Of a DNA stretch of 32,916 bases, positions 2,260-26,956 are shown piece after piece (position 1 is the first letter of the stretch; every line of letters begins with the position of its first letter). The notes below the pieces were generated by a model, which made no database searches, was not told where the DNA came from, and saw only the letters and a list, made by a program, of their open reading frames with translations. The translations under genes and the position numbers were made by a program. The stretch covers positions 1 through 32,916 of the forward strand of contig CAJWOD010000001.1 of the NCBI GenBank assembly GCA_913044145.1. The letters run 5' to 3'. This DNA is from an uncultured Nitrospina sp. GTDB lineage: Bacteria; Nitrospinota; Nitrospinia; Nitrospinales; VA-1.

Positions 2260-2922
2260 TTATTTGGGCTGGGCTGATTTGGCACATCTAAATCCGACGT
2301 TAAATAAACGAGATTTAGCATAAATGCTCATACGACTGCTCGGGGTTATTAAGTTAGCTGAGACATTAAAGGCTCCACCCATTACCACTCTTTTATCAAG
2401 TGTTTCACCTGAATATTCGCTTAGCTTAGCATCTGCAGTTGATGTCCACTCCCAAACATTGCCCGCTGTGTCGAATAACCCAAAAGGGTTTGGTTGTTTT
2501 TGGCCGACTGGGTGGTGACCAAGATCGTAATCTCCTCCATACCAAGCATAAGCCGCATCAGGTTTTTTACCCCAAAAATATTTTGTATTTGTTTGACCTT
2601 TTGCTGCTTTTTCCCACTCTTCTTGACTAGGCAACCTTTTACCTATTTTTTTACAATATGATGCGGCCTTATACCAAGTTATTTGCTCAGCAGGATGATT
2701 TTCACCTTTAAAAGAAAAATTTGCTCTTCCCATAACTTCCTTATACTTTTGTTGCGTAACTTCAGTCTTGTCAATATAGAAAGTATCAAGATCAATTAAT
2801 CTTTTTGATGTCCCGGCCTTGGGTTTTCCATGGGGTATTAAGGCCATCTCAGTTTCATTTCCAAAAAGATTTGCAGGGAGAAAGACTATTAGTATTAAAA
2901 TTGATATTATATGTCTTAGCAT
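2260..2922 (-). CDS. Secreted FGE-sulfatase domain protein (SUMF1/formylglycine-generating-enzyme family)
   Basis: 220 aa with an N-terminal signal peptide (ILILIVFLPANLFG). Family-typical motifs are ITWYKAASYCKKIGKRLPSQEEWEKAA, HPVGQKQPNPFGLFDTAGNVWEWT, GGAF and the C-terminal VGFRCAK. Confidence 0.75.
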   Translation of the reverse strand: MLRHIISILILIVFLPANLFGNETEMALIPHGKPKAGTSKRLIDLDTFYIDKTEVTQQKYKEVMGRANFSFKGENHPAEQITWYKAASYCKKIGKRLPSQEEWEKAAKGQTNTKYFWGKKPDAAYAWYGGDYDLGHHPVGQKQPNPFGLFDTAGNVWEWTSTADAKLSEYSGETLDKRVVMGGAFNVSANLITPSSRMSIYAKSRLFNVGFRCAKSAQPK

Positions 2923-3121: not shown

Positions 3122-3151
3122 AAAAAAAAACCCGCCGAAAATTTCGGCGGG
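3122..3151 (-). terminator. Rho-independent terminator closing the cytochrome operon
   Basis: A perfect 10-bp GC-rich stem pairs CCCGCCGAAA (3131..3140) with TTTCGGCGGG (3142..3151). On the minus strand it is followed by a run of nine U (plus-strand A-run at 3122..3130). It begins 25 nt after the stop at 3176. Confidence 0.75.
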
Positions 3152-3175: not shown

Positions 3176-4939
3176 CTATTTAGGAAGCTCGTCACGCTGG
3201 ACCTTCCCTTCGTCATACATTTTCCGTGTTCGCTTTGTCATCCATACCAACCAACCCTGGAAGCAGATGAAAACTGCTGCAATGATTGGAGGCATGTAGT
3301 AAAGCGACGCAGGTAACGCAGGTTTCAGAATGGTGTAATACCATGTCGAGATAGCCATATGCTCATCATGCTCTTTATCCCAACCTGCCCATTGCATGAA
3401 ACTAACTGGAATGAACTGTTCAGAAGGAATCTGAACATCATCCGCACCTTCCGTCGTTAATGACCGCTTGAACATAACTTTGACACGACCCTGATGGAAA
3501 ATGGAGTCAACAACTTCAACTTTTCCTTCAGATTCTTTCTCAGAAATTGCATCAAAACCGTTACCTTTGAATTCTTGTACGGTTACGTCCAATTGATAGC
3601 CTTTTTCATTGGGCGGATTAGTCGCGTTATAATCCTTAGCCAAGAAGTTAGCCTTCCAAACGTCAACCGGCTTCTTAGAATCTCCATAGATAAAATACGG
3701 TTTTTCAGCGCCAAAAAGATCTTGTAATTGCCCCGGCCATTGGATTGCTACGGCATCGGGATATTCCGGATCCGTTGACAAGAACCTATTGTCGAATTCA
3801 ACAAGGTAGTAGACAGCATTTTCCTCTGCGCTCCATCGTGAACTTACCCAGAGGTTATCTGTTTTAGGGTCGAAATTACGTTTTCCCCTAGTGATCTGAC
3901 CCGCCATTGCGATGTAATGCCTCATTGGATTCTCAATCGTCTCTTCGGAAAGAGGAACAATTCTGTGATCCGTATATGAGGACTGCCAGCTTGGGTCATC
4001 AATTTTTGGAACCACCGGACCCTCTGTATAAACAGACTGAATAAGAAAGTCAGGAACTGGTTTGTTAGTCAGTGGGTCAATTTTCTTTCGCGGGCAAAGT
4101 GAGTTTACAAACGCCGCAACTTGCCAACGCTCCTTACCGGTCATCTGCTCCCGAAAGTTTGGCATAGGTGAACCATTCAAACCCGTCGAAATGGTACGGG
4201 CAACATTGAATGGATTAAAAGGATCACGGCGAGCTCCTCGGAAGTTCCAGCATTCCTGCCAGTTTGCTGCAACAATCGGGAAACCCCAATCATCCTTCAT
4301 GGTTGGGTTACCATCTCCTCGACCCTCGCCACCATGACACTCCATGCATTTATTTTTAATGAAGAGTTCCTTACCCGCATCAATATGCTCTTGAGGAACC
4401 CCTAGGTGGTATGGTCCTTTAGTCGCTGCCCATGGGGCATCTCCGAGTGGTCCTTTTCCATTATCAGCCGCTATACCGGTGATAACATTATTCACTTCTT
4501 CATCTTCAGTGTCATCAAAGGATCGATCCTGGACCAGAGTTTTTACAAAATTCACGACAGCTACGATTTCATCCTCCGACAAAAACTCACCCCAGGCAGG
4601 CATTGCTGAGCCCTGGAGGCCATTTTTTACGGTTTTGATTAAATCTGATTCCATTGGGAGCTCCCCTGAATCCGTTGTGCGGATTTTGAAAGTTCCCTGG
4701 ATGAAGTTACGTGGTCGAGTGTACAGACGTTCTGCAGAAGGGCCATCACCACCTCCTTCTACCCCGTGACACCAGACACAACGTTTAAAATAAACCTTCT
4801 TTCCCTTTTCTAGCAGGTCTTTTTTGACTCCATCCGGCACACCGGCAAATACTGCCCCCGGTGCTGCGAACAACGCCACTGCCAGAAAAAACATAAATAG
4901 GCGTTTGATGTAGTTATTATTTGTCATGGTCATTTCCAT
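3176..4939 (-). CDS. Dihaem c-type cytochrome fused to an EB_dh/NxrC-like (type II DMSO-reductase gamma-subunit-type) domain, with a C-terminal TM anchor
   Basis: Two CxxCH motifs are present (CVWCH, CMECH). The C-terminal half carries AVAIQWP...PYFIYGDSKKPVDVWKANF and IPVSFMQWAGWDKEHDEHMAISTWYY, resembling the ethylbenzene-dehydrogenase gamma (EB_dh) fold family. The terminal hydrophobic helix is PPIIAAVFICFQGWLVWM. The track ORF extends to a TTG at 5044. However, the signal peptide (MTNNNYIKRLFMFFLAVALFAAPGAVFA) follows Met36/38/40 and the upstream gene ends at 4971, so I place the start at 4939 (or 4933/4927). Confidence 0.75.
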   Translation of the reverse strand: MEMTMTNNNYIKRLFMFFLAVALFAAPGAVFAGVPDGVKKDLLEKGKKVYFKRCVWCHGVEGGGDGPSAERLYTRPRNFIQGTFKIRTTDSGELPMESDLIKTVKNGLQGSAMPAWGEFLSEDEIVAVVNFVKTLVQDRSFDDTEDEEVNNVITGIAADNGKGPLGDAPWAATKGPYHLGVPQEHIDAGKELFIKNKCMECHGGEGRGDGNPTMKDDWGFPIVAANWQECWNFRGARRDPFNPFNVARTISTGLNGSPMPNFREQMTGKERWQVAAFVNSLCPRKKIDPLTNKPVPDFLIQSVYTEGPVVPKIDDPSWQSSYTDHRIVPLSEETIENPMRHYIAMAGQITRGKRNFDPKTDNLWVSSRWSAEENAVYYLVEFDNRFLSTDPEYPDAVAIQWPGQLQDLFGAEKPYFIYGDSKKPVDVWKANFLAKDYNATNPPNEKGYQLDVTVQEFKGNGFDAISEKESEGKVEVVDSIFHQGRVKVMFKRSLTTEGADDVQIPSEQFIPVSFMQWAGWDKEHDEHMAISTWYYTILKPALPASLYYMPPIIAAVFICFQGWLVWMTKRTRKMYDEGKVQRDELPK

Positions 4940-4970
4940 ATGTTTAGGTTTAGTAACCGTTAAGTTCAAG

Positions 4971-5948
4971 TTATTCCCCACCACCTGAGGTAGAACCTTC
5001 TGTACCAAATGTTCGTGGATGCCAGCCTGTGTACCAATATTCAAACAGGATAACCTTCCAGATCTCCTCGGTTTTTAAATGCTCTTCCCATGGGGGCATT
5101 GCTGAAGACCAGGGGGTAGATTCGTTAGGTAGACCAGGTCCGCCCTTAGACACCCGCCAGAACAGAAATGCTTCCTGCAACATAGCAATGGTACCTGGAT
5201 CAATAAAGTTTGCAGGGGTGGGATTGAACACATGTGAGAACATTCCCAGCCCATTCAACTGATCCCCATGACAGTAATGGCAGTTCTGAAAGAAAATCGT
5301 GCCGCCTTCCGTCACATACTTCATGTACTCATGCTTATCCGCATCGAGAAATGGAAAACTATCTTTGTAGTTATCCTGCTCATCTATACGGAAAGGATTA
5401 TTAGTTGATTCCAGGGGATAAGTCTTGCCATGCACCTTAGTGGTAGCAGGAGGTGCGGGGTGAACCGTCCTCAACTCAACCGGTTCCTGGAAACTCGGAT
5501 AAATCGTGTTATACGTTGCGAACCCTACCAGGATCGGTAAAGCCGTAAAAACAACGATTCGTGCGAGTTTATACTCACCTATAATTGTTTTAACAATAGG
5601 AGCCCTGAATTCCCGAAAAGTCTCTGGATCCTGACTGATATAAAGAAAGGTTCCGATAGACCACATCACCATGTACGTAATAAACAGTGTCCAGGGAATG
5701 TGCGGATACAAAACATAATCATAAAAATAGAACCCAACTGACCAGACAAAAAGCCCTTTAAGAGAAACCGGGGGACTCAGCCTGAGCAATAGGTGCGTAA
5801 TGATCAAATACGCTACAAACAACAAAAAGTAAACGTATCTGTTAAGAATCCAGCCGACCTCCTTCGGTGTAAAAATAGGAAAAATAGCGTTATGAAACAC
5901 CGCTAGGCCGACAACAAATACCAAAAAGCTTACTAAATTTTTATTCAT
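4971..5948 (-). CDS. Polytopic membrane protein with a C-terminal monohaem class-I cytochrome c domain
   Basis: About five N-terminal hydrophobic helices precede a cytochrome c domain (FFQNCHYCHGDQLNGLG ... SSAMPPWEEHLKTEEIWKVILFEY), which is CcoP/class-I-like. The SD AGGAG lies upstream of the ATG at 5948. Confidence 0.75.
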   Translation of the reverse strand: MNKNLVSFLVFVVGLAVFHNAIFPIFTPKEVGWILNRYVYFLLFVAYLIITHLLLRLSPPVSLKGLFVWSVGFYFYDYVLYPHIPWTLFITYMVMWSIGTFLYISQDPETFREFRAPIVKTIIGEYKLARIVVFTALPILVGFATYNTIYPSFQEPVELRTVHPAPPATTKVHGKTYPLESTNNPFRIDEQDNYKDSFPFLDADKHEYMKYVTEGGTIFFQNCHYCHGDQLNGLGMFSHVFNPTPANFIDPGTIAMLQEAFLFWRVSKGGPGLPNESTPWSSAMPPWEEHLKTEEIWKVILFEYWYTGWHPRTFGTEGSTSGGGE

Positions 5949-5962
5949 TGCTGTCTCCTAAA

Positions 5963-7336
5963 TTAACTGCCAGCCGGGGGTTCGGTCTGACTAATAAAAT
6001 CCACAAGCTTATCGAGAGCCCGAACTGATAGCTGCTCCCCAAAGGTTGTGGGCATTAACCCATCCGGATATGATTCTCCGGCTTCTTCATTAAATACCAC
6101 ATAACACCCAGGGCACAGGATTGATTCCTTTACATATTCCTTGGTGTTCGTTGCTTTTCCTTTATAATTTGGATCTTTGATCCGTTCCGGCGCATTAATT
6201 TTCTCATGAAGTTTCGGCCCCAACTCACCAACCGCACCTTCAACGCCCGGAATCGTGTGACAAAGCGGACAACCCAGTGTGTTGATCATTGTCTGGATAT
6301 CCTCATTACCCGTCACGAAAACGGGGCCTTCCTCCTCATCTCCACCACTATCCTCCTCTACAACAGCACCACCGGTATTACCGGCATCATCCTGAGGTAA
6401 AGGAACGGTCACCGACGCAAATTCGCCCGGCGTATCCTTGGATTGAAGATAAGCGACTACAGCGTTTACCTCAACGCGACTCAAACTGATTGGCGGCTTG
6501 ACGATGACAGGCATTGGACTCTTAGTATCGTTAGCCTTACCAAAACCTTTTACCACATAACAGGTCGGACACATTAAAGACTCACGGAGGTAATCTTCTC
6601 CGATAAATTCATCCGGGCCACCTGCACGTCGATACTCTTCCGGTACCTCATCATGCTTACCCTTAACAATTCCAGAGGCTGGTTCTACTTCACCAACCGC
6701 CACAGGGCTTGTCGCATACCTATCCTCTTTTACGCGATCGTGACTTCTTTTCTCAACACCAAAAAGGTTTGGACAACGACCCATATGATCGCCAGGGTCG
6801 AAGGTGTGACAAAGAGGACACTGACCTTTTCCGATAGATTTCTGACCGGCAACCTGTTTGGCGCCAAAAATAATTACGCGCCCCATTTCAGCAAATTCTT
6901 CCATGGTCATATCACCCACAACCGCTGCTTCCTTGGGGGGTGGGTCAGATCGCTGTTGCGGCAACCAGTTGGTATAGCCCGCAAGCAGAACCGAAATTGT
7001 AGTATAGAAGAAAAAGGCTCTAATAATCGGTGCGGACTGCCTTTCAATTTTATTACTCTTGAAGAAAACTCCCCAAACCAACAACATAAAGAGAATAGTC
7101 CAAAGATAAGTTGAGAAAAAGAATACTAATTGATCTCCTTGAACAAGGCTGAACATATGCACGGTCATCAAAAAACAGGTGATGGCCATCGCCCCAAAAA
7201 TACCACCCCAGAGAGTCGAGTTAATTCCCTCCCTTTCTCTACAATGCTGGATAACATTGCCGAAAACATAAAGAGCAAATACGGCAAACATTATCGACAA
7301 AAATGAAAATAATATGTCATGCTGCTCTGGTAACAT
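5963..7336 (-). CDS. Membrane-anchored dihaem c-type cytochrome with an internally duplicated haem module
   Basis: About four N-terminal hydrophobic helices are followed by two homologous modules. Each contains CPLCH, then ES(L/I)xCPxCYVV, then MP, then an LS...(Y/F)(L/I) tail. An acidic/Gly-rich linker (VVEEDSGGDEEEG) separates them. A strong SD (GGAGGAAGGG) lies upstream of the ATG at 7336. Confidence 0.75.
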   Translation of the reverse strand: MLPEQHDILFSFLSIMFAVFALYVFGNVIQHCREREGINSTLWGGIFGAMAITCFLMTVHMFSLVQGDQLVFFFSTYLWTILFMLLVWGVFFKSNKIERQSAPIIRAFFFYTTISVLLAGYTNWLPQQRSDPPPKEAAVVGDMTMEEFAEMGRVIIFGAKQVAGQKSIGKGQCPLCHTFDPGDHMGRCPNLFGVEKRSHDRVKEDRYATSPVAVGEVEPASGIVKGKHDEVPEEYRRAGGPDEFIGEDYLRESLMCPTCYVVKGFGKANDTKSPMPVIVKPPISLSRVEVNAVVAYLQSKDTPGEFASVTVPLPQDDAGNTGGAVVEEDSGGDEEEGPVFVTGNEDIQTMINTLGCPLCHTIPGVEGAVGELGPKLHEKINAPERIKDPNYKGKATNTKEYVKESILCPGCYVVFNEEAGESYPDGLMPTTFGEQLSVRALDKLVDFISQTEPPAGS

Positions 7337-7420
7337 TTTTTCCCTTCCTCCTATACCCTCAGATTAAATCAGGGTTGAGCACCACATTATTTCGCGGCAC
7401 TCAACCCAAATCGATAATTG

Positions 7421-9394
7421 TTATTGTTGTTGCTGCGCAGGAACCGGAACTCCTTCAGGCGCCTTAGCTGGGATTTTCTTGGCTGTCAAACTACCCACCC
7501 AGAAAACCACAACGAACTGAACCCAAACAAATAAGGCGTTGAAGGTAAGCATTTTACCCGCTTCACCAATTGTCAGAGTATAGGCATCTACTGAGTTATC
7601 ACGAACAACCTCCGTTACGTGCCAGAACAATCGCACAGAGGAACGGATATAACCCATGAGACCCATCAACCAAGTGAAGGAAATCGCTAGAAGGAAAATA
7701 GCGTATGTTCCAACCTTAGACTGCGTGCCCCACTGGATATCACCATAAGATTCCGAATCCTTGAACATGGAGATATTGATCGCAGTACCCGCAAACAGAG
7801 TCGTAAGAGTAGATGTTACCTGAGGTACGGAAAGACCAACCCGCTGGTTAGCAGGAAGAAAGTAACCATACACGCCCAGGAAGATAATATTGGCAGCAGC
7901 ACCAATGAAGATCGCTGTAATCCAACAATTACCCACGGTTGCCCATGGCACCGTGATCTTCTTGTTCGCCCTTTGATACAGTAGAAAACAAAGAACCGTA
8001 CAGGTGATCATCAGGTTAACCGCTGTATTCTTAGCTGACATTACACCAAAGTGTCCAACGACTGGATGCTGCGCACCCCCCATTTCTTTCAACTCAGCGG
8101 GGGTCATAACTATGGTATGAGGCGTCATCCACATGGTGAAACAACAGATCAAGAGCAGAACCATGTACTTACAATATTTCATATATCGATGCGATCCCTT
8201 AACCCTCGCCATACCATTGTGCAGATATGAATTCGCGCCGAAGAAAAGCAGACCAATCATTACCGCTTGGATGATGAACAACCAAGCCATGATTCCACCC
8301 ATCAGGGTAATACCCATTTGCTGACGGAACGCATACACTTCTTTCATCAACCAATACCCTGCGAAAGGCAACGGGATCAAACCGAATATCGCAATAAACA
8401 TCGCGACATAACAAACCCAATCGTAATGAGCTTTCTCCTCTTCATTTTTAGCTGTGAGGTAATGGTACGCGGCATAAGCACCAACGATTCCACCCCCGAA
8501 TACAATGTTTCCGAGAATACGATGAACCCCAACTGGGTTCCAAAGCGTGGAATGAATGACATGCCAGATATTTCCCAGAAAACGACCTTCCGAATCAATT
8601 CCACCAGGGGCCTGCATGAAAGTAGCCCAAGAGTTGGCGAGATACATCAGCACCGTTCCGATCAGGTTGAGTAGAACCGAAAGACTACAATGGATCCACT
8701 TAAGGAACTTATCGTCCATCATTTTATCCCAACCATAATAATAAACATAAAGAACACCGGATTCTGCCAAGAACATGAGCGCATAAACGTGCATTACAGG
8801 ACGGAAAATACCTGCCATGTATTTGAAGAACCCAGGAAATAATGTGATAAATGTAAAGAGAAGAATACCCCCAAGAATTGCGGTCCATGAATATGCAGTC
8901 AGACTGACCTTCATGAGGTCTCTGGCTAACCGATCATACTTATCAGCCATCACAGGATCGTCGTCTCTGGTTCTAATTCCGATAAATTCTATGATCATAC
9001 AGAATATCGGTACCGCCAGAACGAAGCTACCAAAGTAGAGGTGTTGTTGGTTTGCAACCCAAAGAATGATTCGACTAGGTGCGAACTCATAAGTATTGTA
9101 GTCTTCCGGGCCTAATTCCGGCGCCGCATAGCCACTAACCGGCCCTTTTAGCGGATTACCTTCCCAGTCCTTATAAAAAACGTCCTGGCTCCACTCAATT
9201 TCCGGTTCGCCTTCGCCTTCAACAGCCTCTTCTGCCTGAACCTCTTTAGCAAAAGCCTCTTCAGCGAAAACTTGCTCTGCAAATGCCTCTTTGGCATCTG
9301 CAATGCCGGTCATTCCTGGAATCAGGTATATGGCTAGCGCCAAAACCAACCCCAGTGACAATGTCCCGATACTACGTGTGTTTTTCCCCAACAT
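7421..9394 (-). CDS. Cytochrome bd-like oxidase subunit (CydA homologue; no CydB partner in the window)
   Basis: 657 aa with about 13-14 hydrophobic segments. By-eye matches to E. coli CydA (recalled from memory) are listed next. QQHLYFGSFVLAVPIF matches AMYHFLFVPLTLGM (His19 region). ALMFLAESGVLYVYYYGWDKM matches [21 protein letters not shown] (Glu99 region). LMYLANSWATFMQAP matches LWILVANGWMQNP. NPVGVHRILGNIVFGG matches NPVAQVKFVHTVASGY (His186 region). The SD AAGGAGG lies upstream of the ATG at 9394. Confidence 0.75.
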   Translation of the reverse strand: MLGKNTRSIGTLSLGLVLALAIYLIPGMTGIADAKEAFAEQVFAEEAFAKEVQAEEAVEGEGEPEIEWSQDVFYKDWEGNPLKGPVSGYAAPELGPEDYNTYEFAPSRIILWVANQQHLYFGSFVLAVPIFCMIIEFIGIRTRDDDPVMADKYDRLARDLMKVSLTAYSWTAILGGILLFTFITLFPGFFKYMAGIFRPVMHVYALMFLAESGVLYVYYYGWDKMMDDKFLKWIHCSLSVLLNLIGTVLMYLANSWATFMQAPGGIDSEGRFLGNIWHVIHSTLWNPVGVHRILGNIVFGGGIVGAYAAYHYLTAKNEEEKAHYDWVCYVAMFIAIFGLIPLPFAGYWLMKEVYAFRQQMGITLMGGIMAWLFIIQAVMIGLLFFGANSYLHNGMARVKGSHRYMKYCKYMVLLLICCFTMWMTPHTIVMTPAELKEMGGAQHPVVGHFGVMSAKNTAVNLMITCTVLCFLLYQRANKKITVPWATVGNCWITAIFIGAAANIIFLGVYGYFLPANQRVGLSVPQVTSTLTTLFAGTAINISMFKDSESYGDIQWGTQSKVGTYAIFLLAISFTWLMGLMGYIRSSVRLFWHVTEVVRDNSVDAYTLTIGEAGKMLTFNALFVWVQFVVVFWVGSLTAKKIPAKAPEGVPVPAQQQQ

Positions 9395-9704
9395 AGCTTT
9401 AACCTCCTTTTGGATCTGATCAGGATCCGTTGCTAGTATTACAAAACTTAAATTAGGTACCTATTTTTTGTTAAATCCAAATTTATCTTCGCTTAGTTTT
9501 TATAGCCTTTTTTTATTAAAAATTTTTCGACAATCCCAAATAAATTCTTCAAAAAATTTTCTGATTCTACAAAAGCCGGTTCAAATCGCTTCAAAACACT
9601 TTAAAAGTAAAAGCAATAAACTCTACAACTCTCTAACTTTAAAGGGTTTTTAGACCCCTTTGTCCTAGCTTTTTTTTGGCGCACAGTTGCCCAAAATGAT
9701 GGTG

Positions 9705-9733
9705 ATTAAAACATAGCCTTTACTATGTGTCAA
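9705..9733 (-). promoter_or_regulatory. Candidate sigma70-type promoter for the bd-like/cytochrome c operon (TTGACA-N17-TTTAAT on the minus strand)
   Basis: On the minus strand, TTGACA is at 9733..9728, followed by a 17-nt spacer and TTTAAT at 9710..9705. It would give a leader of roughly 300 nt before the ATG at 9394. This is sequence pattern only. Confidence 0.3.
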
Positions 9734-9773
9734 GTCAAAATCGACCCCTTCAAGCCTTAAAAATATAATGTTT

Positions 9774-11075
9774 TCAGGATTTTTTTTCAGGCCCATCCAG
9801 TCGCAATTTGACCGAATTTGCATGCCCTCCCAAATCCTCCATTTCTGCTAATAATTGTACCGTTTTACCGCAATTTTGCAAAGCTTCTCTTGTGTAAGAG
9901 ATCAAACTTGTGCGCTTGATAAAATCGTATACCCCAAGAGGCGACGAAAACCGCGCAGTACCACTCGTGGGTAAAACATGATTGGGACCAGCAAGATAGT
10001 CTCCCATTGCCTCCGGGGTATAATGTCCCAGAAATATAGCCCCAGCATTTTGTACCTTTTTAGCCCACTCCTCCGGCTTTTCTAGGGCGAGCTCCAAATG
10101 CTCTGGTGCGATTTTATTTGCCATATCTACCGCATCTTGAAGCGATTCAGTTACCAACAAATAACCATTGTTTCTTAAAGAAATTTCAGCAATATTCCTC
10201 TTATTTAAAGCTTTCACCTGTTTTTCCAATTCCTTTTTGACATTTTCAGCCAAAGCCTCATCCGGAGTTAAAAGAATGGGAACAGCGTCTTCATCATGCT
10301 CTGCCTGAGAAAGCAGGTCGGCGGCCACATAAGAGGGGTTGGCAGAATGGTCCGCCACAATTAGAATCTCACTGGGGCCCGCAATCATATCAATGTCGAC
10401 GATTCCAAAAACTAACCTTTTAGCTAAAGCTACAAATATATTTCCTGGCCCAACAATTTTATCAACTCGTGGAATTGTGCCTGTGCCAAACGCCATGGCC
10501 GCAACCGCTTGCGCTCCTCCAATTTTATAAATTTCCGTGACCCCAGCTAAATCGGCTGCAACCAAAACATGCGGCCGTGTCTGACCCTCAGGAAAAGGAG
10601 AACACATTACTATCCGCTTCACCCCAGCAACCTTTGCGGGAATAGCATTCATCAACACAGATGATGGATAAGAAGCTTTACCGCCCGGGACATAAATCCC
10701 CACAATCTCCAAGGGCTTCACCAACTGCCCAAGAACAATCCCGTCCTCTTGATAAGTCCAAGAGTCCTGCTTCTGTCTTTCATGAAACAACCGAATTCTT
10801 TTTGCAGCTTCCCCTAACGCATCAAGCTCTTCCTGATTAATTTCCTTGTAAGCGGCCTTTATTTCGTCTGAAGTTACCCGAATTTTTTCCAAAGGAAGGG
10901 CGTGACGGTCAAATTGATGGGTCAATCTGAGTACTGCCTCATCACCCTTTTCCTTCACATCATTTAAAATTTTTCGAACCGTTTCATCCTCAGTGAACAA
11001 ATCCATACTCGATCGGTTCACTAGAGTTTCGACTAAATTTTGGTAACCTGGCTCTGAAAATTTGCAAAGCTTCAT
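9774..11075 (-). CDS. hisD: Histidinol dehydrogenase
   Basis: 433 aa with the conserved motifs IAPEHLEL, QAEHDEDA, GDYLAGPNHVLPTSGTARFSSPLGVYDF and IVGPGNIFV. Confidence 0.92.
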   Translation of the reverse strand: MKLCKFSEPGYQNLVETLVNRSSMDLFTEDETVRKILNDVKEKGDEAVLRLTHQFDRHALPLEKIRVTSDEIKAAYKEINQEELDALGEAAKRIRLFHERQKQDSWTYQEDGIVLGQLVKPLEIVGIYVPGGKASYPSSVLMNAIPAKVAGVKRIVMCSPFPEGQTRPHVLVAADLAGVTEIYKIGGAQAVAAMAFGTGTIPRVDKIVGPGNIFVALAKRLVFGIVDIDMIAGPSEILIVADHSANPSYVAADLLSQAEHDEDAVPILLTPDEALAENVKKELEKQVKALNKRNIAEISLRNNGYLLVTESLQDAVDMANKIAPEHLELALEKPEEWAKKVQNAGAIFLGHYTPEAMGDYLAGPNHVLPTSGTARFSSPLGVYDFIKRTSLISYTREALQNCGKTVQLLAEMEDLGGHANSVKLRLDGPEKKS

Positions 11076-11090
11076 TTTAAAAACTCATCC

Positions 11091-11771
11091 TTATTCAAAA
11101 GATATTTCATCAAGAAAAATTTTTGTCTTTCCGCCTACACAAAGCCCCGAATGGGCAATAAGTTTCAAATGTGTGTTAAGAAACTTTAAGTCATCAGGAG
11201 AATCTACATCGTACCAAATGGGTAACAACTCTAAAGACGCTCTCGCCCCCTTAAGTTTCTTTAAAGTTTCATCCAAAACATGTTTTGTTCCCCAAGCAAC
11301 TCCACTAAACACCTCAGAAACCTTACCTGACATGGCTATCAGATAGTAACCTCCATCGGTACTTGGGCCCAACACTAAATCTTTTTCAGAAGCCAATGCC
11401 TTATTTATATATGAAACAGGCAAGGAAGGGCTGTCCGACCCAATGATAACAACCTTCTTATACCCCTCAGCAAATCGATCGACAAAAGCTTGACGCATTT
11501 TGTCCCCAAGGTCCTTTCCCTGCTGGGTAAAGAGATTCATGCCGAGACTCTCAATTCCCTCAAAGAATCCAGAATGATTGTCTGGAGAAATTCCCACGAA
11601 ACATTTGGCGTTATCTACTTGTCGAATTTTTTCAAGACTATCTTCAACAAAGCAGGTATAAAGCTTTAGGATAGTTTCATCATCCAGCGAAGGACTTAAC
11701 CGGGTTTTTACCTGACCTAAGATAGGGTCACGTGCAAACAGAATTACCGCGTTATCTTTATTTTTGTCCAT
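11091..11771 (-). CDS. DUF2064 / TIGR04282-type nucleotidyl(glycosyl)transferase-like protein
   Basis: 226 aa. The N-terminal AVILFARDPILGQVKTRLSP motif is characteristic of DUF2064 (FAK.P.pG.vKTRL). GSDSPSLP and DGGYYLI are also family-typical. It ends 15 nt before the hisD start, so it is probably co-transcribed. Confidence 0.7.
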   Translation of the reverse strand: MDKNKDNAVILFARDPILGQVKTRLSPSLDDETILKLYTCFVEDSLEKIRQVDNAKCFVGISPDNHSGFFEGIESLGMNLFTQQGKDLGDKMRQAFVDRFAEGYKKVVIIGSDSPSLPVSYINKALASEKDLVLGPSTDGGYYLIAMSGKVSEVFSGVAWGTKHVLDETLKKLKGARASLELLPIWYDVDSPDDLKFLNTHLKLIAHSGLCVGGKTKIFLDEISFE

Positions 11772-14977: not shown

Positions 14978-16483
14978 ATGGCCAGCGAACAAAATAAAAC
15001 TTTATCCAAACCTAAAATAGCCACTGGAGGTTTGATTTTTGAGGAACCAATTGTTTTTGAATTGGGGTCCCCTGGGCGCAAAGCCTATTCCCTAGGCGCC
15101 TGTGATGTTCCAGAAATCGAACTAGAAACACTACTACCCACCGATGAAATTCGTGCTCCAATTAAAGAACTGCCGGAATTAACCGAACTCGATGTCGTTC
15201 GTCACTATACAAGGTTGTCGCAATGGAACTTTAGTATCGATACCAATTTTTATCCATTGGGGTCATGCACCATGAAGTACAACCCAAAATTAAACGAAAC
15301 CCTAGCACGTTTGCCAGGCTTCGCAGGACACCATCCCATTTCCGCAGATGAAGACTCGCAGGGAAGTTTACAACTTATGTACGAGCTACAAGAGTGCCTT
15401 AAGGAAATAAGTGGAATGGATCATGTCAGCCTGCAACCCGCAGCCGGAGCCCAAGGTGAGTTCGCAGGTATGCTGATGATTCAGGCTTACCACACCGCAA
15501 AAGGCAATCCCCGGAAAAAAGTTTTTTTACCCGATTCTGCGCATGGCACGAACCCAGCTAGCGCAAATCTTTGCGGTTACAAATCAGTACAGATCCCATC
15601 CAACTCTGAAGGCCTTATTGATATTGACAAACTCGAAGCTCTCATGGATGAAGAAACCGCCGCTATTATGCTAACCAATCCCAACACATTGGGAATGTTT
15701 GAGAAAGATATTTTAAAAATCACCAAGATTGTTCATAACAAGGGAGGATTGGTTTATTGTGATGGTGCCAACCTCAATGCAGTAATGGGAATCGTTAAGA
15801 TGGGGGAAATGGGAATTGATGTTTTACATATCAACCTGCATAAAACCTTCTCGACCCCACATGGCGGAGGTGGACCGGGGGCAGGGCCCGTCTGTATCAA
15901 GGATACTCTCGAACCTTATCTACCTAAACCAGTAGTGGAAAAAAAAGGTCATAAATACGTATTAAATAATAATCGGCCCAAAAGTGTAGGTAAATTGAAA
16001 GTTTTTAACGGTAACTTTGGTATGCTTCTAAGAGCATACGCATACATCCGCACTCTCGGCCCGGAAGGTATTCTTGAAGCCGCTCAATCAGCTGTCTTAA
16101 ACGCAAACTATATCCGCGCAAAACTAAAGGACACGTTCCACCTGCCTTTCAATGGAGCCTCCCTGCACGAATGCGTTTTCAACGATAAAGGTCAGGGCGT
16201 CACAACGATAGACATTGCCAAAGAACTTATTGATCATGGGTTTCACCCACCCACTGTGTACTTCCCGTTAATAGTAAAAGGTGCCTTGATGATCGAGCCG
16301 ACAGAAACCGAATCCAAAGAAACCCTCGATATGTTTATTGAGGCTATGAAATCCATCTCCAAGAAAGGCCATGAAGACCCAGAAAGTTTTCATGAGGCGC
16401 CGCGCCTACCAAAAGTATCACGTCCTGATGAAGCACAGGCAGCTCGCCTACCAAAATTAAAGTGGACAAGACAACCGGTTTAA
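14978..16483 (+). CDS. gcvPB: Glycine dehydrogenase (decarboxylating) subunit 2 (P-protein beta)
   Basis: 501 aa. It carries the PLP-lysine motif HINLHKTFSTPHGGGGPGAGP, plus LIFE..., YPLGSCTMKYNP and TNPNTLG. The start lies only 11 nt after the preceding GT9 gene. Confidence 0.9.
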   Translation: MASEQNKTLSKPKIATGGLIFEEPIVFELGSPGRKAYSLGACDVPEIELETLLPTDEIRAPIKELPELTELDVVRHYTRLSQWNFSIDTNFYPLGSCTMKYNPKLNETLARLPGFAGHHPISADEDSQGSLQLMYELQECLKEISGMDHVSLQPAAGAQGEFAGMLMIQAYHTAKGNPRKKVFLPDSAHGTNPASANLCGYKSVQIPSNSEGLIDIDKLEALMDEETAAIMLTNPNTLGMFEKDILKITKIVHNKGGLVYCDGANLNAVMGIVKMGEMGIDVLHINLHKTFSTPHGGGGPGAGPVCIKDTLEPYLPKPVVEKKGHKYVLNNNRPKSVGKLKVFNGNFGMLLRAYAYIRTLGPEGILEAAQSAVLNANYIRAKLKDTFHLPFNGASLHECVFNDKGQGVTTIDIAKELIDHGFHPPTVYFPLIVKGALMIEPTETESKETLDMFIEAMKSISKKGHEDPESFHEAPRLPKVSRPDEAQAARLPKLKWTRQPV

Positions 16484-16526: not shown

Positions 16527-18077
16527 TTAGAAACCAATTAAAAACCCACTCACCAAAACCAACACCGCAGTGGTTATAATACCTGCTCCAATAAGGTTTA
16601 GGATCAACCCGGCTTTTGACATTTTTGGAATACTCACCCAACCGCTACCGAAGACAATTGCATTTGGCGGTGTCGCTACCGGTAACATAAACGCAAACGA
16701 AGCGGCCAACGTCGCTGGCACCATAAAATATAATGGATGAACAGTCGCCGATATCGCAGCCATACCAAGTATAGGAAGAATCATTGTCGTGGTCGCCGTG
16801 TTAGAAGTTAATTCCGTTAAAAAAGTAACCACAAGACAAATGGTAAGAACCGTCATCCACAACGGCCAATCAGAAACCCCCGTCAGTTTAGATCCAATCC
16901 ATTTATCGAGTCCACTCACTCCAAAACCCGATGCTAGAGCAAAACCACCACCAAAAAGAATTAAAGTTCCCCACGGTGTTTTCGATTGCACTGTTTTCCA
17001 GTCCAAAGCAAACCATTCGGTTTTGCCGTTCAGGATGAGCCCTTTGGTGCCATTGACCGGAGCCACCAATAGTAGCAGACCCATGGTCATGGCAATGGTG
17101 GAATCATGCAAAAACTTTGGATTTTCAAATAGGTTCGACCAACCAGGAATTACCCACTCCCCTATCGCAATGGGTCGCCTAAAAATCCATAGAATTGCTG
17201 TAAAGCAAAAAACGGTTGCGACGATTTTTTCTGCCCAACTCATGGAGCCTAACTCATCAAGTTCTTTTTGAATGATTCTACTTTCTCCGCCTTCGATTTG
17301 GTTTATTGGAAAGGGTAAAACAAAACGACAAAGATAAATCCATGTTATTGGAATAAAAACCAAGACTATAGGGATAGCCAATATCATCCACTGAAAAAAA
17401 CTTACTTCAGGGTTATCCGGATAAAGATTTTTGTAGAATCCTGCAAATACAATATTTGGTGGCGTTCCAATCGGTGTGCCGACCCCTCCAATACTGGCAG
17501 AATATGCAAGGCCCAACATCAATACGAGCCCAAATCCATTTTCGATCTTTTTTTGTGAATCAAAATTTCTATTTCCATTTAAAGAAGCATCTAAAGCGAT
17601 CTGCCTTACCACGGCCATGGCTACGGGAAGCATCATCATCGTCGATGCCGTGTTGGAAATCCACATCGATAAAAATGCTGTTGCCATCATAAATCCGAGG
17701 ACGATCCGTTTCGGTTCCGTTCCCATTACTGAGATGATCCACAGTGCAAGACGTTTGTGAAAATTCCATTTCTCCATGGCGAGAGCGATCATGAATCCAC
17801 CCAGGAACAAAAAGATAAGATGATTGGCATAATTGGGAGCCACCTGTTTGCTAGGCAAGATGCCGAGCAATGGAAACAATACCAGAGGTAACAATGCTGT
17901 CACGGCAAGCGAGATGCCCTCACCGACCCACCATATGGCCATCAAGGCGACCACAGCGAACATGCGCTGCGCACTTTCTGTCATACCGTCAGGAAGTGGC
18001 ATGAGCAAAATTCCGCAGAAAATAATAAACCCAGCTAAAAGCACAACAATCTGTTTTTTGAATGTATTTTCTATCAA
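16527..18077 (-). CDS. DASS/SLC13-family anion:Na+ symporter (dicarboxylate/sulfate-type permease)
   Basis: 516 aa, polytopic. AIWWVGEGISLAVTALLPLVLFPLLGILP and NTATTTMILPI / ATPPNAIVF are hairpin-loop motifs (SNT/ATPPN) typical of DASS transporters. The start is uncertain: the TTG at 18077 has no SD, and internal Met26/Met32 are alternatives. Confidence 0.8.
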   Translation of the reverse strand: MIENTFKKQIVVLLAGFIIFCGILLMPLPDGMTESAQRMFAVVALMAIWWVGEGISLAVTALLPLVLFPLLGILPSKQVAPNYANHLIFLFLGGFMIALAMEKWNFHKRLALWIISVMGTEPKRIVLGFMMATAFLSMWISNTASTMMMLPVAMAVVRQIALDASLNGNRNFDSQKKIENGFGLVLMLGLAYSASIGGVGTPIGTPPNIVFAGFYKNLYPDNPEVSFFQWMILAIPIVLVFIPITWIYLCRFVLPFPINQIEGGESRIIQKELDELGSMSWAEKIVATVFCFTAILWIFRRPIAIGEWVIPGWSNLFENPKFLHDSTIAMTMGLLLLVAPVNGTKGLILNGKTEWFALDWKTVQSKTPWGTLILFGGGFALASGFGVSGLDKWIGSKLTGVSDWPLWMTVLTICLVVTFLTELTSNTATTTMILPILGMAAISATVHPLYFMVPATLAASFAFMLPVATPPNAIVFGSGWVSIPKMSKAGLILNLIGAGIITTAVLVLVSGFLIGF

Positions 18078-18205
18078 GGGAGGCTCGTCAAAAAGGGTTC
18101 AACGAATTGATATTAACAGAGGGAAGATAAAAATCCTATCCAGAAGGGATGTGCAAACGCATCACTGGGAAAGAAGCCGTCTTATTACCATTTATTGTTC
18201 ACAAG

Positions 18206-19099
18206 TCAGTGAGCAGCCGAATGCGAACCGGAAAGGATCTGGTTTATTTTGAGGGTGGAGACGATGTGGGTGTCCATTCCCAGTTGTGTGGGTGTGTAGC
18301 CCAATGCCAGAGCCACCAGTTGCGGTAAGTGCAGGATGGGAATGGATTGGTTTTTCTTTTGCAATAATTCGATTTCCGGTTGATAAGAATCGAGGCTCAG
18401 GTGACAGAGCGGACATCCAGTGGCAACGACATCGGCACCATGTTCGATCGCATCCTGCAATGCATTACCTGACATACCTAAAGATGCATCCTTGTTCATC
18501 ATCACGATAGGAAAACCGCAACATTTGGTACGACTAGGATAATAAATCGGGGTTGCGCCCAAGGCTTCAAAGATATCTTCCATCCCTGTTGGGTTGTCTG
18601 GATTATCAAAGTCAGATCGTTCGGACGGACGCAGAACATAACAACCGTAAAAGGCTGCAACCTTTAATCCGGTCAAAGGACGCTTGATGCGAGACTTTAA
18701 TCTTGCCATTCCCTCTTCGGTTGCCAGGATGTTAGCAAAATGTTTGATTCTTGTTTTTCCATTGTACTGATGCCCCCCCTCTTCGAGGATGTCGTTGACT
18801 TTTTCTTTATACTCTTTACTTTCGTTTAAATGTGCTTCGGTTTTTTTTAAGGTCCCCTGACAGGTTGAACAAATAGTGACAATATCCAAACCCTGTTTTT
18901 CAGCGATGGAGAACGAACGCGCGTTTAAAGCATCTGCCAATAGTGGGCTCTTTTCGGAAACCACTCCCGCACCACAACAGGACGCGCTTTTCATTTCTAC
19001 AAAATCAAAGCCTAGGCCTTCCGCTGCTTTGGTTGTGGAGAGCATCAACTCTCGGGTCGCCCCTTTGGCGACACATCCGGTAAAAAGGGCAAACTTCAT
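18206..19099 (-). CDS. sdhE: CCG-domain (HdrB/SdhE-like) subunit of a type-E succinate dehydrogenase/fumarate reductase
   Basis: Two cysteine-rich CCG repeats are present. The first is FTGC...SASCCGAG...ICSTCQG and the second is FYGC...RTKCCGFP...ATGCPLCH. The start overlaps the sdhB stop (ATGA at 19096..19099). Confidence 0.75.
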
Positions 19100-20037
19100 T
19101 GATCCAACTCCTTGAATATACGTTTTACATCACGAACCTCTTCAATAGAATGATGAAGGATTGGTGGAACTTTTCCTTTGAGTAACATTCTGAGCCCAAC
19201 CGGAATCAAGCTGAGCAGTCCGGGGATATTAAAAATTCCCATCGACTCCACGGGAATTCTGTTTTCGTTTAGATTGCCGCTCCTCTTAACTGAATTAGTG
19301 AAGGACAGTGCGTGACGCGCACCATTATTGTTATGAACACCTTCCTCCAATGCCACGGTCATGATTTCTTTGATGCGATCGAAAGGACGTGCCGGTTTCG
19401 GGCAGCGTTCTACACATTCGGCACAATGGGTGCAATCCCAAATCCCTCCTGGCTCACTTAAGTCCTGTACGCGTTGCAGGGTTTTAGAGTCGCGGGAATC
19501 GCCGACAAACCGTTGCGCTTTTGCCAAAGCTGCAGGCCCGAGGAAATTATCATCCACTTCCAGAGTGTTGCAGTCGGAATAGCAGGCACCGCACATGATG
19601 CAAGTACTAGCGTCATCAATGACTAAAAACTCTTCCTGCGACTGACGTCTTTCTTTTACCGGTGGCTCTTCTTTTGGCTCCAGATAAGGTTTTATTTTAT
19701 TCACTTTGTCCCAGAACGGTGTGAAGTCTACTACCAGATCTTTTACTGGTTTCATATTACCGAGAGGTTCTAAAGTAATAGTATCGTTGTTATCCACAAG
19801 GTGTTCCGCCTGTCGTTGGCAAGCCAGTAAGGCATGACCGTTTGACTTGACTGCACACGAGCCACAGATTGCACTTCGGCACGACATCCTATAAGAAAGG
19901 CTGCCATCAAGAGTCCACTTGATCTGGTTCATACAATCCAGGAGCGTGGCACCATCGGGAATATCCAGTTGAAACTCTTCGAAATAAGGCTCGGGCTGTT
20001 TTTCCGGATTGAATCGTTTGATTCTGAAAGTTGCCAT
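19096..20037 (-). CDS. sdhB: Succinate dehydrogenase/fumarate reductase iron-sulfur subunit
   Basis: The 2Fe-2S motif is CRSAICGSC...[12 protein letters not shown] is a CxxCxxCxxxC motif, and [12 protein letters not shown] is a full CxxCxxCxxxCP motif. A C-terminal extension of about 80 aa is present. The track start is a TTG at 20040. The ATG at 20037 overlaps the sdhA stop (TGATG) and is the likely start. Confidence 0.88.
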
Positions 20038-26870: not shown

Positions 26871-26901
26871 GTTAATATAAAAAAGAAGTTATAAGTAATT
26901 T

Positions 26902-26934
26902 GTAGGGAAAGCCAGATAGTCTAGCTTTCCCTAC
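26902..26934 (-). terminator. Strong intercistronic hairpin between the two HtrA genes (terminator/attenuator or mRNA-stability element)
   Basis: An 11-bp perfect stem pairs GTAGGGAAAGC (26902..26912) with GCTTTCCCTAC (26924..26934), with an 11-nt loop. No U-run follows immediately on the minus strand, so it is not a canonical intrinsic terminator. Confidence 0.45.
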
Positions 26935-26956
26935 TTTATCTTAGACAAGATATCTT

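Follow-up and report, generated by a model that had tools for sequence, protein, structure and literature searches.

A CydB-less cytochrome bd-like protein encoded with three membrane-anchored cytochromes c in a conserved gene cluster of Nitrospina

Results

Layout of the locus

The stretch of DNA analysed here (‘the window’; 32,916 nucleotides from an uncultured marine Nitrospina sp., family Nitrospinaceae) carries four minus-strand open reading frames (ORFs) that form a single unit in the order g1-g2-g3-g4, with spacers of 84, 14 and 31 nt; strand and spacing are as given in the initial annotation. Working from the upstream end, g1 (7421..9394, minus strand) encodes an OR-N2-type cytochrome bd-like membrane protein of 657 amino acids (aa), with a signal peptide, ∼13 transmembrane (TM) helices and one amphipathic helix. 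It is followed by g2 (5963..7336, minus strand), a membrane-anchored dihaem cytochrome c of 457 aa with four TM helices at its N-terminal end and a pair of c-haem domains that resemble SoxX, and by g3 (4971..5948, minus strand), a membrane-anchored monohaem cytochrome c of 325 aa. The last gene, g4 (3176..4939, minus strand), encodes an ‘alternative NxrC’ of 587 aa, in which a signal peptide is followed by a dihaem cytochrome c domain, then by one resembling EbdC/NxrC and finally by a TM anchor at the C terminus; its start is taken as the ATG that gives the 31-nt gap, the mechanically called ORF extending to a TTG at 5044. Hydropathy and alignments support ∼4 TM helices in g2, ∼5 in g3 and one, plus the signal peptide, in g4, in line with the earlier estimate. 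Shine-Dalgarno sequences precede g1 (AAAGGAGG), g2 (TAGGAGGAAGGG) and g3 (TAGGAGA), accounting for the three strong sites previously claimed; one was also looked for at the g4 start, and none was found.

The unit is closed by an intrinsic terminator (3122..3151, minus strand), again as first described: a 21-nt hairpin (3131-3151) and then a U9 run (3122-3130), with a folding energy of -29.3 kcal/mol (z = -6.2 against shuffles). There are no terminators with U-runs inside the four-gene unit. The g1-g2 spacer can form a stable RNA hairpin (7367..7412, minus strand; -26.9 kcal/mol, z = -3.6), and many Nitrospinaceae loci, like most of those examined from Nitrospira, have GC-rich hairpins with differing stem sequences in this spacer. 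Upstream of g1 the sole long non-coding stretch is the 379-nt intergenic region that separates it from hisD (9395..9773, minus strand). This contains one sigma-70-like match (TTGACT-17-TATGTT, at 9738-9710); such matches are not commoner than in shuffled sequence, so the region is only presumed to hold the promoter. Pfam scans of 28 window ORFs, including all of the large non-overlapping ones, found no CydB, in agreement with the initial annotation, and no second CydA-like gene.

Conservation of the cluster

Across 80 related loci, the four genes are complete, in the same order and on the same strand, in 69; in the other 11 a contig end falls inside the cluster. The arrangement is far beyond chance. 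Every locus long enough to test (69/69; 55 Nitrospinota and 14 Nitrospira) keeps the order intact, so that the synteny check proposed at the outset finds conservation over two phyla. Median gaps across these loci are 81, 17 and 53 nt, and the 2+1+2 pattern of haem motifs does not vary among the orthologues. The same module is also present, at 40–44% identity, in two further contigs (L087 and L088), and in Kuenenia the same gene pattern is annotated beside its cydA-like gene.

The bd-like core

The description of g1 as a CydA homologue is upheld by a match to PF01654 (E = 1.2e-21), confined to profile positions 3–239 of 418; the quinol-binding half of CydA (the Q-loop region) is unmatched, and in the literature on bd-like proteins of this kind all quinol-binding residues are reported absent. 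Together with co-conservation of the cluster, these results corroborate the initial picture of a bd-like protein that lacks CydB and is tied to membrane cytochromes c. The protein is 94–97% identical to those of other Nitrospinaceae and ∼60% identical to those of Nitrospira. Within the cytochrome bd superfamily g1 belongs to the OR-N2 subfamily (Murali, Gennis and Hemp 2021): of the 15 published signature residues it has 13 (including H118, Y204, E211, H235, H291, M452/N456, S585 and W591), and its syntenic Nitrospira orthologues have all 15.

An AF2 model of g1 (pLDDT 87.8) matches, by Foldseek, the CydA subunit of all solved bd oxidases (E = 8e-10 to 1e-5), and has ∼4 more helices than CydA. 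Equivalents of CydA His19, His186, Met393, Glu107 and His126 are kept; two canonical O2-site residues are altered, Glu99 to Tyr204 and Glu445 to Ser585. In the model the conserved His and Met residues sit at periplasmic helix ends, with Glu211, His235 and Tyr204 in the cytoplasmic half. Only part of the haem-copper-like ligand set put forward for a Nitrospira paralogue is present in g1 (Gln442, Phe590).

The cytochrome c subunits

The five CxxCH motifs counted earlier in g2, g3 and g4 are all present. Both of those in g2 read CPLCH (C173 and C356) and are kept without exception in its orthologues, 58 from Nitrospinota and 15 from Nitrospira; family matches for this protein are weak (PF00034; TIGR04485 SoxX, E = 1.5e-7). 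An extra CPGCY in g2 is missing from its orthologues. The single motif of g3 is CHYCH (C223), located in a protein that matches PF13442 (E = 1.6e-6) and whose periplasmic half is almost invariant between Nitrospinota and Nitrospira; indeed, the periplasmic segments of g2, g3 and g4 alike are nearly invariant between the two phyla. All of the c-haem domains are extramembrane, as judged by the count of preceding helices. The proposal in the initial annotation that the nine helices of g2 and g3 might replace CydB found no support; the ∼4 helices in excess of CydA belong to g1 itself.

With CxxCH motifs at C54 and C198, g4 matches PF00034 and PF13442 (E = 2e-21). Its N-terminal domain matches chain B of PDB 6H5L, the Kuenenia dihaem cytochrome Kustc0457 (E = 8e-49). 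The gamma-subunit-like domain that had been ascribed to g4 stands at the level of the family: PF09459 matches 10 of 13 aligned g4 proteins, a set made up of 12 orthologues and the one encoded in the window (best E = 8.3e-13). In the window protein itself the domain is only weakly detectable, and TIGR03477 (E = 1.2e-7) and PF09459 (E = 0.016) both fall below cut-offs. The C-terminal domain matches NxrC (7B04_C, E = 2.4e-4), and the EbdC haem-ligand positions Met108 and Lys201 are occupied in g4 by Tyr418 and an invariant Met528.

Discussion

The cluster is already known from the genomes of Nitrospina, Nitrospira and anammox bacteria: it is bd-like_3 plus alt_NxrC_2 of Nitrospira, TO_1 of Ca. 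Manganitrophus and kustd1712-1709 of Kuenenia. The statement in the initial annotation that such proteins occur in Nitrospira and Nitrospina and are biochemically uncharacterised agrees with this literature, and its three hypotheses (a cytochrome c-oxidising reductase, reverse flow to quinone and a dock for NXR) are the same three already published. OR-N2 operons comprise multiple cytochromes c and an EbdC homologue (supplement to Murali, Gennis and Hemp 2021), and in the literature on OR-N enzymes consulted here no activity, spectrum or purification is reported for any of them. In N. moscoviensis the cluster is within the 40 most transcribed genes (Mundinger et al. 2019), and in the Mn-oxidiser TO_1 lies at the 98th expression percentile (Yu et al.). 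Ca. N. vancouverensis and Ca. N. litoralis, which are aerobic and without a canonical haem-copper oxidase, have kept the cluster. It is located in the NXR region of N. gracilis and, in the strict anaerobe Kuenenia, inside the nxr gene cluster, where it is down-regulated with nxr in the absence of nitrite.

Gene content and order, their conservation, and the motifs, fold and subfamily are direct observations; from them we infer that the four proteins assemble and bind haem, and our tentative choice of donor and acceptor makes them one membrane haem complex, which would oxidise cytochrome c (or NXR) with O2 and generate proton-motive force (pmf) by charge separation; we rate this reading a little short of an even chance. 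Electrons would enter from the periplasmic side, where nitrite oxidoreductase (NXR) or else a soluble carrier would donate them, since g1 and g4 bear signal peptides and the c-haem domains are placed outside the membrane. The entry point would be g4, anchored by its C-terminal helix and equipped with two c haems and, in its EbdC/NxrC-like domain, probably a b haem; the two tethered c haems of g2 and the one of g3 would also lie on the route to a g1 haem at His291/Met452 near the periplasmic face, and on to a His118-ligated haem. There the acceptor, most likely O2, would be reduced with cytoplasmic protons delivered via Glu211, His235 and Tyr204, pmf arising without pumping, as in cytochrome bd. 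Such bd-type chemistry is suggested because the CydA-equivalent residues are kept and these three residues lie in the cytoplasmic half.

That the products form one complex is argued by the order (69/69), the invariant 2+1+2 motifs, the Kuenenia pattern, the near-invariant periplasmic segments and the L087/L088 modules. Were the genes mere neighbours, the missing Shine-Dalgarno sequence at g4 and the strong hairpin between g1 and g2 would be easily accommodated, but the identical order across two phyla and beyond, the short gaps and the single terminator with no internal counterpart make this very improbable indeed. The choice of O2 is less secure: Tyr204 and Ser585 at the O2 site and the incomplete haem-copper-like ligands (Gln442, Phe590) count against it, and since the cluster lies in the nxr region of anaerobic Kuenenia, O2 cannot be the universal acceptor. 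The bd-type haem might instead reduce NO, nitrite, H2O2 or some further oxidant, either to detoxify it or to dispose of electrons under anaerobic conditions. Such a role would suit the strictly anaerobic anammox hosts and the altered O2-site residues, as well as the kinship of the g4 dihaem domain with a protein that partners a nitrite-reducing HAO; the handling of NO and H2O2 is also a known property of canonical bd oxidases. Very high expression in ordinary aerobic growth, however, better fits a main respiratory route than detoxification, and we regard an alternative acceptor as decidedly unlikely.

A more serious rival, given the presence of the cluster in anaerobic anammox bacteria, is reverse electron flow, in which nitrite electrons arriving via NXR and the c haems are pushed uphill to quinone at the expense of pmf, supplying reductant for CO2 fixation. 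This role was proposed by Lucker 2013 and by Mundinger et al. 2019, the latter preferring it for this particular cluster. The cluster is found in nitrite oxidisers and in anammox bacteria as well as in a Mn(II) oxidiser, groups for each of which uphill flow from a high-potential donor has been invoked, and co-regulation with nxr in Kuenenia accords with it; UbiA-, UbiX- and radical-SAM-type genes ∼3 kb downstream in L088 offer a weak hint in the same direction. Against this, the PF01654 match stops short of the Q-loop region, quinol-binding residues are reported absent and no quinone site is identifiable; Nitrospira already has bc-type complexes able to serve (Mundinger 2019), and the kept cytoplasm-side channel residues better suit a proton-consuming reduction at a periplasm-side haem. 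On balance we consider reverse flow unlikely, if deserving of attention. Less probable again is that g4 acts as a gamma subunit anchoring periplasmic NXR, its partners doing no more than pass electrons on to bc complexes or to oxidases elsewhere, and g1 serving as a haem scaffold with no terminal chemistry. The EbdC/NxrC-like domain and anchor helix of g4, its Nitrospira name (alternative NxrC; Mundinger et al. 2019), the homology of its dihaem domain to a cytochrome permanently bound to a partner enzyme and the NXR-region location in N. gracilis and Kuenenia all speak for such a dock. NXR genes, though, are absent from the 33-kb window, the annotated Nitrospira flanks, L087 and L088; TO_1 is called a terminal-oxidase complex in the Mn(II) oxidiser, with NXR unmentioned (Yu et al.); alt_nxrC_2 transcripts are 2.5- to 4-fold below those of the core NXR subunits (Mundinger et al. 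2019); Tyr418 and Met528 stand in place of the Met/Lys pair of EbdC; and the strict conservation of the bd-type ligands of g1 would be left unexplained.

Comparison with known systems

Set beside its named equivalents (OR-N2, bd-like_3, TO_1 and kustd1712-1709), the window cluster shares the signature residues (13/15), a helix-rich architecture without a Q-loop and the pairing of two membrane cytochromes c with an anchored dihaem/EbdC-like protein (haems 2+1+2). It differs in nothing of substance, save that it does not adjoin NXR genes; Nitrospira has a second bd-like paralogue 5.5 kb upstream, whereas the window contains none, and related Nitrospinaceae loci have none within 9 kb.

With the CydAB(X) quinol oxidases g1 has in common the N-terminal helix fold and the His19/His186/Met393/Glu107/His126 equivalents, but the cluster is without CydB, the Q-loop and quinol site are unmatched, Glu99 and Glu445 are replaced by Tyr and Ser, and g1 has its additional helices (∼4), a cleavable signal peptide and c-type cytochromes for partners. 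The cbb3 oxidases (CcoNOP) likewise feed a multi-helix catalytic subunit from anchored mono- and dihaem cytochromes c, and the c-haem domains of g3 and g4 match CcoP-type PF13442 and solved CcoP chains; g1, however, is not a haem-copper oxidase, and it has only part of the haem-copper-like ligands seen in a paralogue. In its C-terminal periplasmic domain g4 shows homology to EbdC/NxrC, the gamma subunits of type II DMSO-reductase-family enzymes; it departs from them in that this domain is fused both to a dihaem cytochrome c and to an anchor in the membrane, and in the exchanged ligand positions. Finally, a full-length alignment, with both CxxCH motifs kept, links the dihaem domain of g4 to Kustc0457, the cytochrome that partners the nitrite-reducing HAO Kustc0458; Kustc0457 is a soluble, stand-alone protein on an octahaem enzyme, whereas the g4 domain is part of an anchored multidomain subunit.

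Operon layout and transcription signals

Read in the direction of transcription, the minus-strand gene cluster at 3176–9394 opens with the gene for a bd-like protein (g1; 7421–9394, 657 aa), followed by those for a dihaem cytochrome c (g2; 5963–7336, 457 aa), a monohaem cytochrome c (g3; 4971–5948, 325 aa) and a further dihaem cytochrome c carrying an EbdC/NxrC-like domain (g4; 587 aa). We place the start of g4 at ATG 4939 rather than at TTG 5044, where the mechanically called ORF begins; the ATG leaves a gap of 31 nt, yields a typical signal peptide and agrees with the starts of orthologues. The initial annotation had described one operon of closely spaced genes, three of them with Shine-Dalgarno sequences, closed by a terminator; accordingly, we measure gaps of 84, 14 and 31 nt on a single strand, and find AAAGGAGG before g1, TAGGAGGAAGGG before g2 and TAGGAGA before g3, with no Shine-Dalgarno sequence found upstream of g4. 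The terminator also lies where it had been placed: a hairpin (3131–3151) followed by nine U (3122–3130, minus strand), with a folding energy of −29.3 kcal/mol (z = −6.2). Matches in a promoter scan were no commoner than in shuffled sequence.

The spacer between g1 and g2 holds an additional RNA hairpin (7367–7412, minus strand) with a 14-bp stem (−26.9 kcal/mol, z = −3.6) and without a U-run. Between the corresponding genes, many Nitrospinaceae loci and most of the Nitrospira loci examined likewise have a GC-rich hairpin, with unrelated stem sequences; in other Nitrospinaceae the spacer is AT-rich and the hairpin absent. The element may stabilise or attenuate the transcript, and so set subunit ratios.

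The bd-like subunit and its place in the cytochrome bd superfamily

Membership of g1 in the superfamily, as first proposed, is upheld by a match to PF01654 at E = 1.2e-21 (bit score 77, cut-off 26.2; residues 108–355), which covers only the first 239 of 418 profile positions; the matched stretch comprises the haem-binding helices, with the quinol-binding part falling outside it. Taken alone against the PDB, g1 gives a single marginal match (E = 0.002), and a profile of its orthologues matches the CydA chain 9R2G_A at E = 2.5e-7. An AlphaFold2 model built with 13 close orthologues was unusable (pLDDT 46); with 45 distant representatives added (58 sequences) it reached pLDDT 87.8 and pTM 0.85. 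The ten best Foldseek matches to this second model are all CydA chains and take in every solved bd oxidase (E = 7.8e-10 to 9.9e-6, probability 1.00). Sequence identity of g1 to its counterparts is 94–97% in uncultured marine Nitrospinaceae and about 60% in Nitrospira.

The superfamily has been divided into the qOR, OR-C and OR-N families (Murali, Gennis and Hemp), and operons of the OR-N2 subfamily combine several cytochromes c with an EbdC homologue (Murali et al., supplement), as g2, g3 and g4 do here. Of the 15 diagnostic positions for OR-N2 (Table S6 of Murali et al., preprint supplement: H99, Y183, E190, H213, H269, M430/N434, S563, W569, Y197, Y199, G155, I158, L227 and I235), 13 are identical in g1 and two carry conservative changes, L179 and A257; in published numbering, the syntenic Nitrospira orthologues keep 15/15. 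OR-N1 proteins have Gly at the position of Glu107, whereas g1 has Glu211, and we therefore assign g1 to OR-N2 and not to OR-N1; the assignment draws on the signature residues, synteny and the identity of about 60% to Nitrospira OR-N2-type proteins. The model also gives the approximately 14 transmembrane helices typical of OR-N2, as one signal/anchor helix, 13 membrane helices and one amphipathic helix, the count differing from 14 solely through treatment of the first helix.

Numbered against Escherichia coli CydA, His19 (the helix-1 histidine) corresponds to H118 of g1, Glu107 to E211, His126 to H235, His186 to H291, Met393 to M452/N456 and Trp441 to W591. The His19 position is conserved throughout cydA paralogues; H118 is invariant among orthologues and found in 37/40 family members. 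Glu99 and Glu445 of the canonical b595/d site are not kept, their places being taken by Tyr204 and Ser585. The quinol site and Q-loop of canonical quinol-oxidising CydAB are not matched in g1, the PF01654 match stopping short of them, and in the model helix 6 is followed by an amphipathic helix and two extra transmembrane helices. From the model helices and loop charges, the chain is predicted to begin with a cleavable signal peptide, followed by an acidic stretch in the periplasm, to continue through six helices equivalent to CydA helices 1–6, and then, at the place of the Q-loop, to form the amphipathic helix and seven more helices before ending in the cytoplasm. The His and Met residues conserved across the family (H118, M260, H291, H426, H443, M452 and H592) lie in loops on the periplasmic side or at the helix ends facing it; Y204, E211 and H235 are placed in the cytoplasmic half. 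The full set of histidines for CuB and a high-spin haem, expected of the haem-copper-oxidase-like variant proposed for Nitrospira, is incomplete in g1, where Gln442 and Phe590 occupy positions that are His in other family members.

The absence of CydB noted at the outset holds for the window: PF02322 has no match in Pfam scans of 28 window ORFs, a set that includes all large non-overlapping ones, and the same scans found neither a second CydA-like gene nor nitrite oxidoreductase (NXR). What they did identify includes genes with housekeeping functions and a set for fumarate reductase/succinate dehydrogenase.

We also considered whether the C-terminal helices of g1 might represent a fused CydB-like, or duplicated CydA-like, half; this is unsupported. 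Comparison of helices 1–4 with 5–9 in hhalign is weak (P = 6e-4, probability 30%) and fits the known two-bundle pseudo-symmetry, the last five helices show no link to the first half, and the weaker CydB matches that Foldseek also returned are not tied to any region of g1. The suggestion in the initial annotation that g2 and g3 stand in for CydB is speculative.

The cytochrome c partners

The haem-binding motifs number 2, 1 and 2 in g2, g3 and g4, as originally counted, and these CxxCH counts hold without exception in 73 orthologues of g2, 70 of g3 and 69 of g4. Matches to PF00034 and PF13442 mark the three proteins as c-type cytochromes, for which c haems are predicted. Hydropathy and alignments reproduce the earlier estimate of about four, five and one anchor helices, and would place every c-haem domain on the periplasmic side.

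In the g2 protein, four helices at the N-terminus are combined with two c-haem domains of SoxX-like type. Beside its two CPLCH motifs stands a C256-P-x-C259-Y element (residues 256–260) that is invariant across Nitrospinota and Nitrospira. A second such element, CPGCY at 408 (residues 408–412), occurs in the window only: it is absent from 12/12 aligned orthologues, which read E/D/N/T-P-x-A/V-Y/F at this site.

In g3, about five helices accompany one haem, and the periplasmic half differs hardly at all between Nitrospinota and Nitrospira. Its periplasmic linker at residues 155–177, EPVELRTVHPAPPATTKVHGKTY (consensus EP(V/I)ELRTVHPAPPAxT(K/R)VHGK(T/S)Y), contains two invariant histidines and varies between the phyla at only four positions, unlike the transmembrane part, which has diverged; we regard the linker as a candidate subunit interface or source of an extra ligand.

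The N-terminal dihaem domain of g4 matches chain B of PDB entry 6H5L at E = 8e-49, the Kuenenia HAO structure in which the enzyme was crystallised with its dihaem cytochrome Kustc0457. The C-terminal domain is EbdC/NxrC-like, that is, related to the gamma subunits of type II DMSO-reductase-family enzymes, and matches NxrC (7B04_C) at E = 2.4e-4. For the gamma-subunit-like domain claimed for g4, 10/13 aligned sequences (window protein included) match PF09459, at a best E of 8.3e-13; the window protein taken alone stays below threshold, both for PF09459 (15.7 bits, cut-off 33.3; E = 0.016) and for TIGR03477 (31 bits, cut-off 170; E = 1.2e-7). The Met and Lys that serve as axial b-haem ligands in the EB_dh/NxrC family are not kept in g4 of the window. 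An invariant Met528 stands at the position of Lys201 of EbdC (Lys in NxrC too), and Tyr418, which is Tyr, Met or Phe in orthologues, aligns with the Met of the NxrC RMGD motif; the latter we take to be the haem-ligand position of EbdC Met108. Lys413 is invariant and is a possible substitute ligand. On these alignments a b haem in g4 is plausible, and its ligation would be unlike that of EbdC/NxrC.

Conservation and genomic context

A scan of one genome per species gave 80 loci, 65 from Nitrospinota and 15 from Nitrospira or Nitrospiraceae. In 69 of these the four genes are all complete and keep a single order and strand; in the remaining 11 the contig ends inside the cluster. The same module recurs at 40–44% g1 identity in two more distant relatives (L087 and L088) where a bd-like gene is accompanied by two genes for cytochromes c and one for a dihaem cytochrome c that has an EB_dh domain; no molybdoenzyme genes were found nearby. 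Four other distant loci do not carry the module; they represent different OR-N contexts and are uninformative on the g1–g4 operon: bd-like genes stand alone in L081 and L082, an 889-aa bd-like protein is fused to cytochrome c domains in L083 (117–2786), and Rieske, cytochrome b and cytochrome c genes are flanked by two bd-like genes in L084 (2279–11225).

In Nitrospira (L066–L080) a second bd-like paralogue, 49–50% identical to g1, lies about 5.5 kb upstream of the g1 orthologue on the same strand; none was found within 9 kb in any Nitrospinota locus. All 15 Nitrospira loci also have FGE-like genes just upstream of the bd-like orthologue, on the same strand. In L074, the sole locus annotated, these are two genes in tandem (6428–8305), lying together with a DUF3047 gene between the paralogue and the cluster, and a gene for a MobA-like NTP transferase comes after the cluster (15201–15818). 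The window has a secreted FGE-sulfatase-domain protein of its own (2260–2922, minus strand; PF03781, E = 4e-39), about 30% identical to those of Nitrospira and directly after the operon terminator; no FGE-like gene was found flanking the other 65 Nitrospinota loci.

Upstream of the operon lie hisD and a DUF2064/CofC-like nucleotidyltransferase gene (9774–11771, minus strand), a pair present in every Nitrospinaceae locus that reaches that far. At 16527–21746 the minus strand encodes the flavoprotein of a fumarate reductase/succinate dehydrogenase, together with an iron-sulfur subunit and an HdrB-like CCG-domain subunit, and then a DASS-family (Na+/sulfate-dicarboxylate) transporter, a set compatible with the reductive TCA cycle of Nitrospinota. 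Two tandem genes for HtrA/DegP-type serine proteases with PDZ domains are found at 25503–28429 (minus strand).

Possible electron routes

The layout of the four proteins supports entry of electrons on the periplasmic side. In the mechanism we propose, they would then pass one probable b haem and five c haems, tethered as a chain, to reach the bd-type haem site of g1, which keeps its His/Met low-spin ligands, the His19-type ligand and part of a proton path from the cytoplasmic side; this arrangement would suit an electrogenic, non-pumping terminal reductase. In an aerobic nitrite oxidiser O2 is the obvious acceptor, and reduction of O2 by such an enzyme is the reading towards which we tentatively lean. 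The strongest objection to it comes from anammox bacteria, which are anaerobic and keep the same module inside their nxr cluster: in Kuenenia the genes after the cydA-like kustd1712 are annotated as dihaem (kustd1711), monohaem (kustd1710) and dihaem (kustd1709) cytochromes, and transcripts of kustd1712–1709 are, like those of nxrAB, 2.2- to 5.2-fold lower on NO instead of nitrite. This placement speaks for reverse electron flow to quinone, which we consider unlikely overall yet deserving of serious attention, or for a role as a dock and electron hub for NXR, which seems to us improbable. Transfer to an acceptor other than O2 is more doubtful again.

Returning to the terminal reductase, a bolder version would make the OR-N2 complex, in marine Nitrospinaceae that lack a haem-copper oxidase, the main terminal reductase, wired directly to periplasmic NXR; it might use a non-O2 acceptor too, given that anammox bacteria, which are strict anaerobes, operate the same module. 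We rate this a long shot. Nitrite oxidation has been reported from apparently anoxic oxygen-minimum-zone waters, and the proposal, if true, would supply a molecular basis for it.

Relation to described clusters

Among known nitrite oxidisers, Nitrospinota are the most abundant in the marine water column, and a canonical haem-copper oxidase is absent from two cultured species (Mueller 2021). The cluster is the leading candidate for passing their electrons to O2, or else for driving electrons uphill to supply CO2 fixation. How these electrons reach O2 is important for the marine nitrogen cycle, and the window brings no answer nearer: the cluster was documented before, and the additional copy, nearly identical to the others, leaves the state of knowledge unchanged. 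The interpretation in the initial annotation was sound, and the cluster it picked out is confirmed as an already documented and named feature of these genomes. What we add is a clean OR-N2 assignment; a map of residues for mutagenesis (H118, Y204, E211, H235, H291, M452, Q442, H443, F590 and H592 in g1; K413 and M528 in g4); a link by homology between the dihaem domain of g4 and a Kuenenia cytochrome of known structure; and the hairpin after g1, recurring as a structure in many but not all related loci.

A literature search found no structural or biochemical work on bd-like oxidases, and a comparison of Nitrospinota states that the composition and function of the complex still await experimental confirmation. 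Lucker 2013 described a 14-helix bd-like oxidase without any quinol-binding residues and suggested a role like that of alternative complex III. Mundinger 2019 described the grouping of bd-like_3 with alt_NxrC_2 and two membrane cytochromes c, reported to be conserved in both Nitrospina and anammox bacteria and to rank among the 40 most transcribed genes, with reverse electron flow or NXR anchoring as possible functions; in a Mn(II) oxidiser it was named TO_1 and is expressed at the 98th percentile (Yu et al.). Mueller 2021 found the same conserved cluster in Nitrospinae and reported that in its bd-like oxidase two His ligands of the haem-copper type are replaced by Gln and Phe; Q442 and F590 of g1 are these same substitutions.
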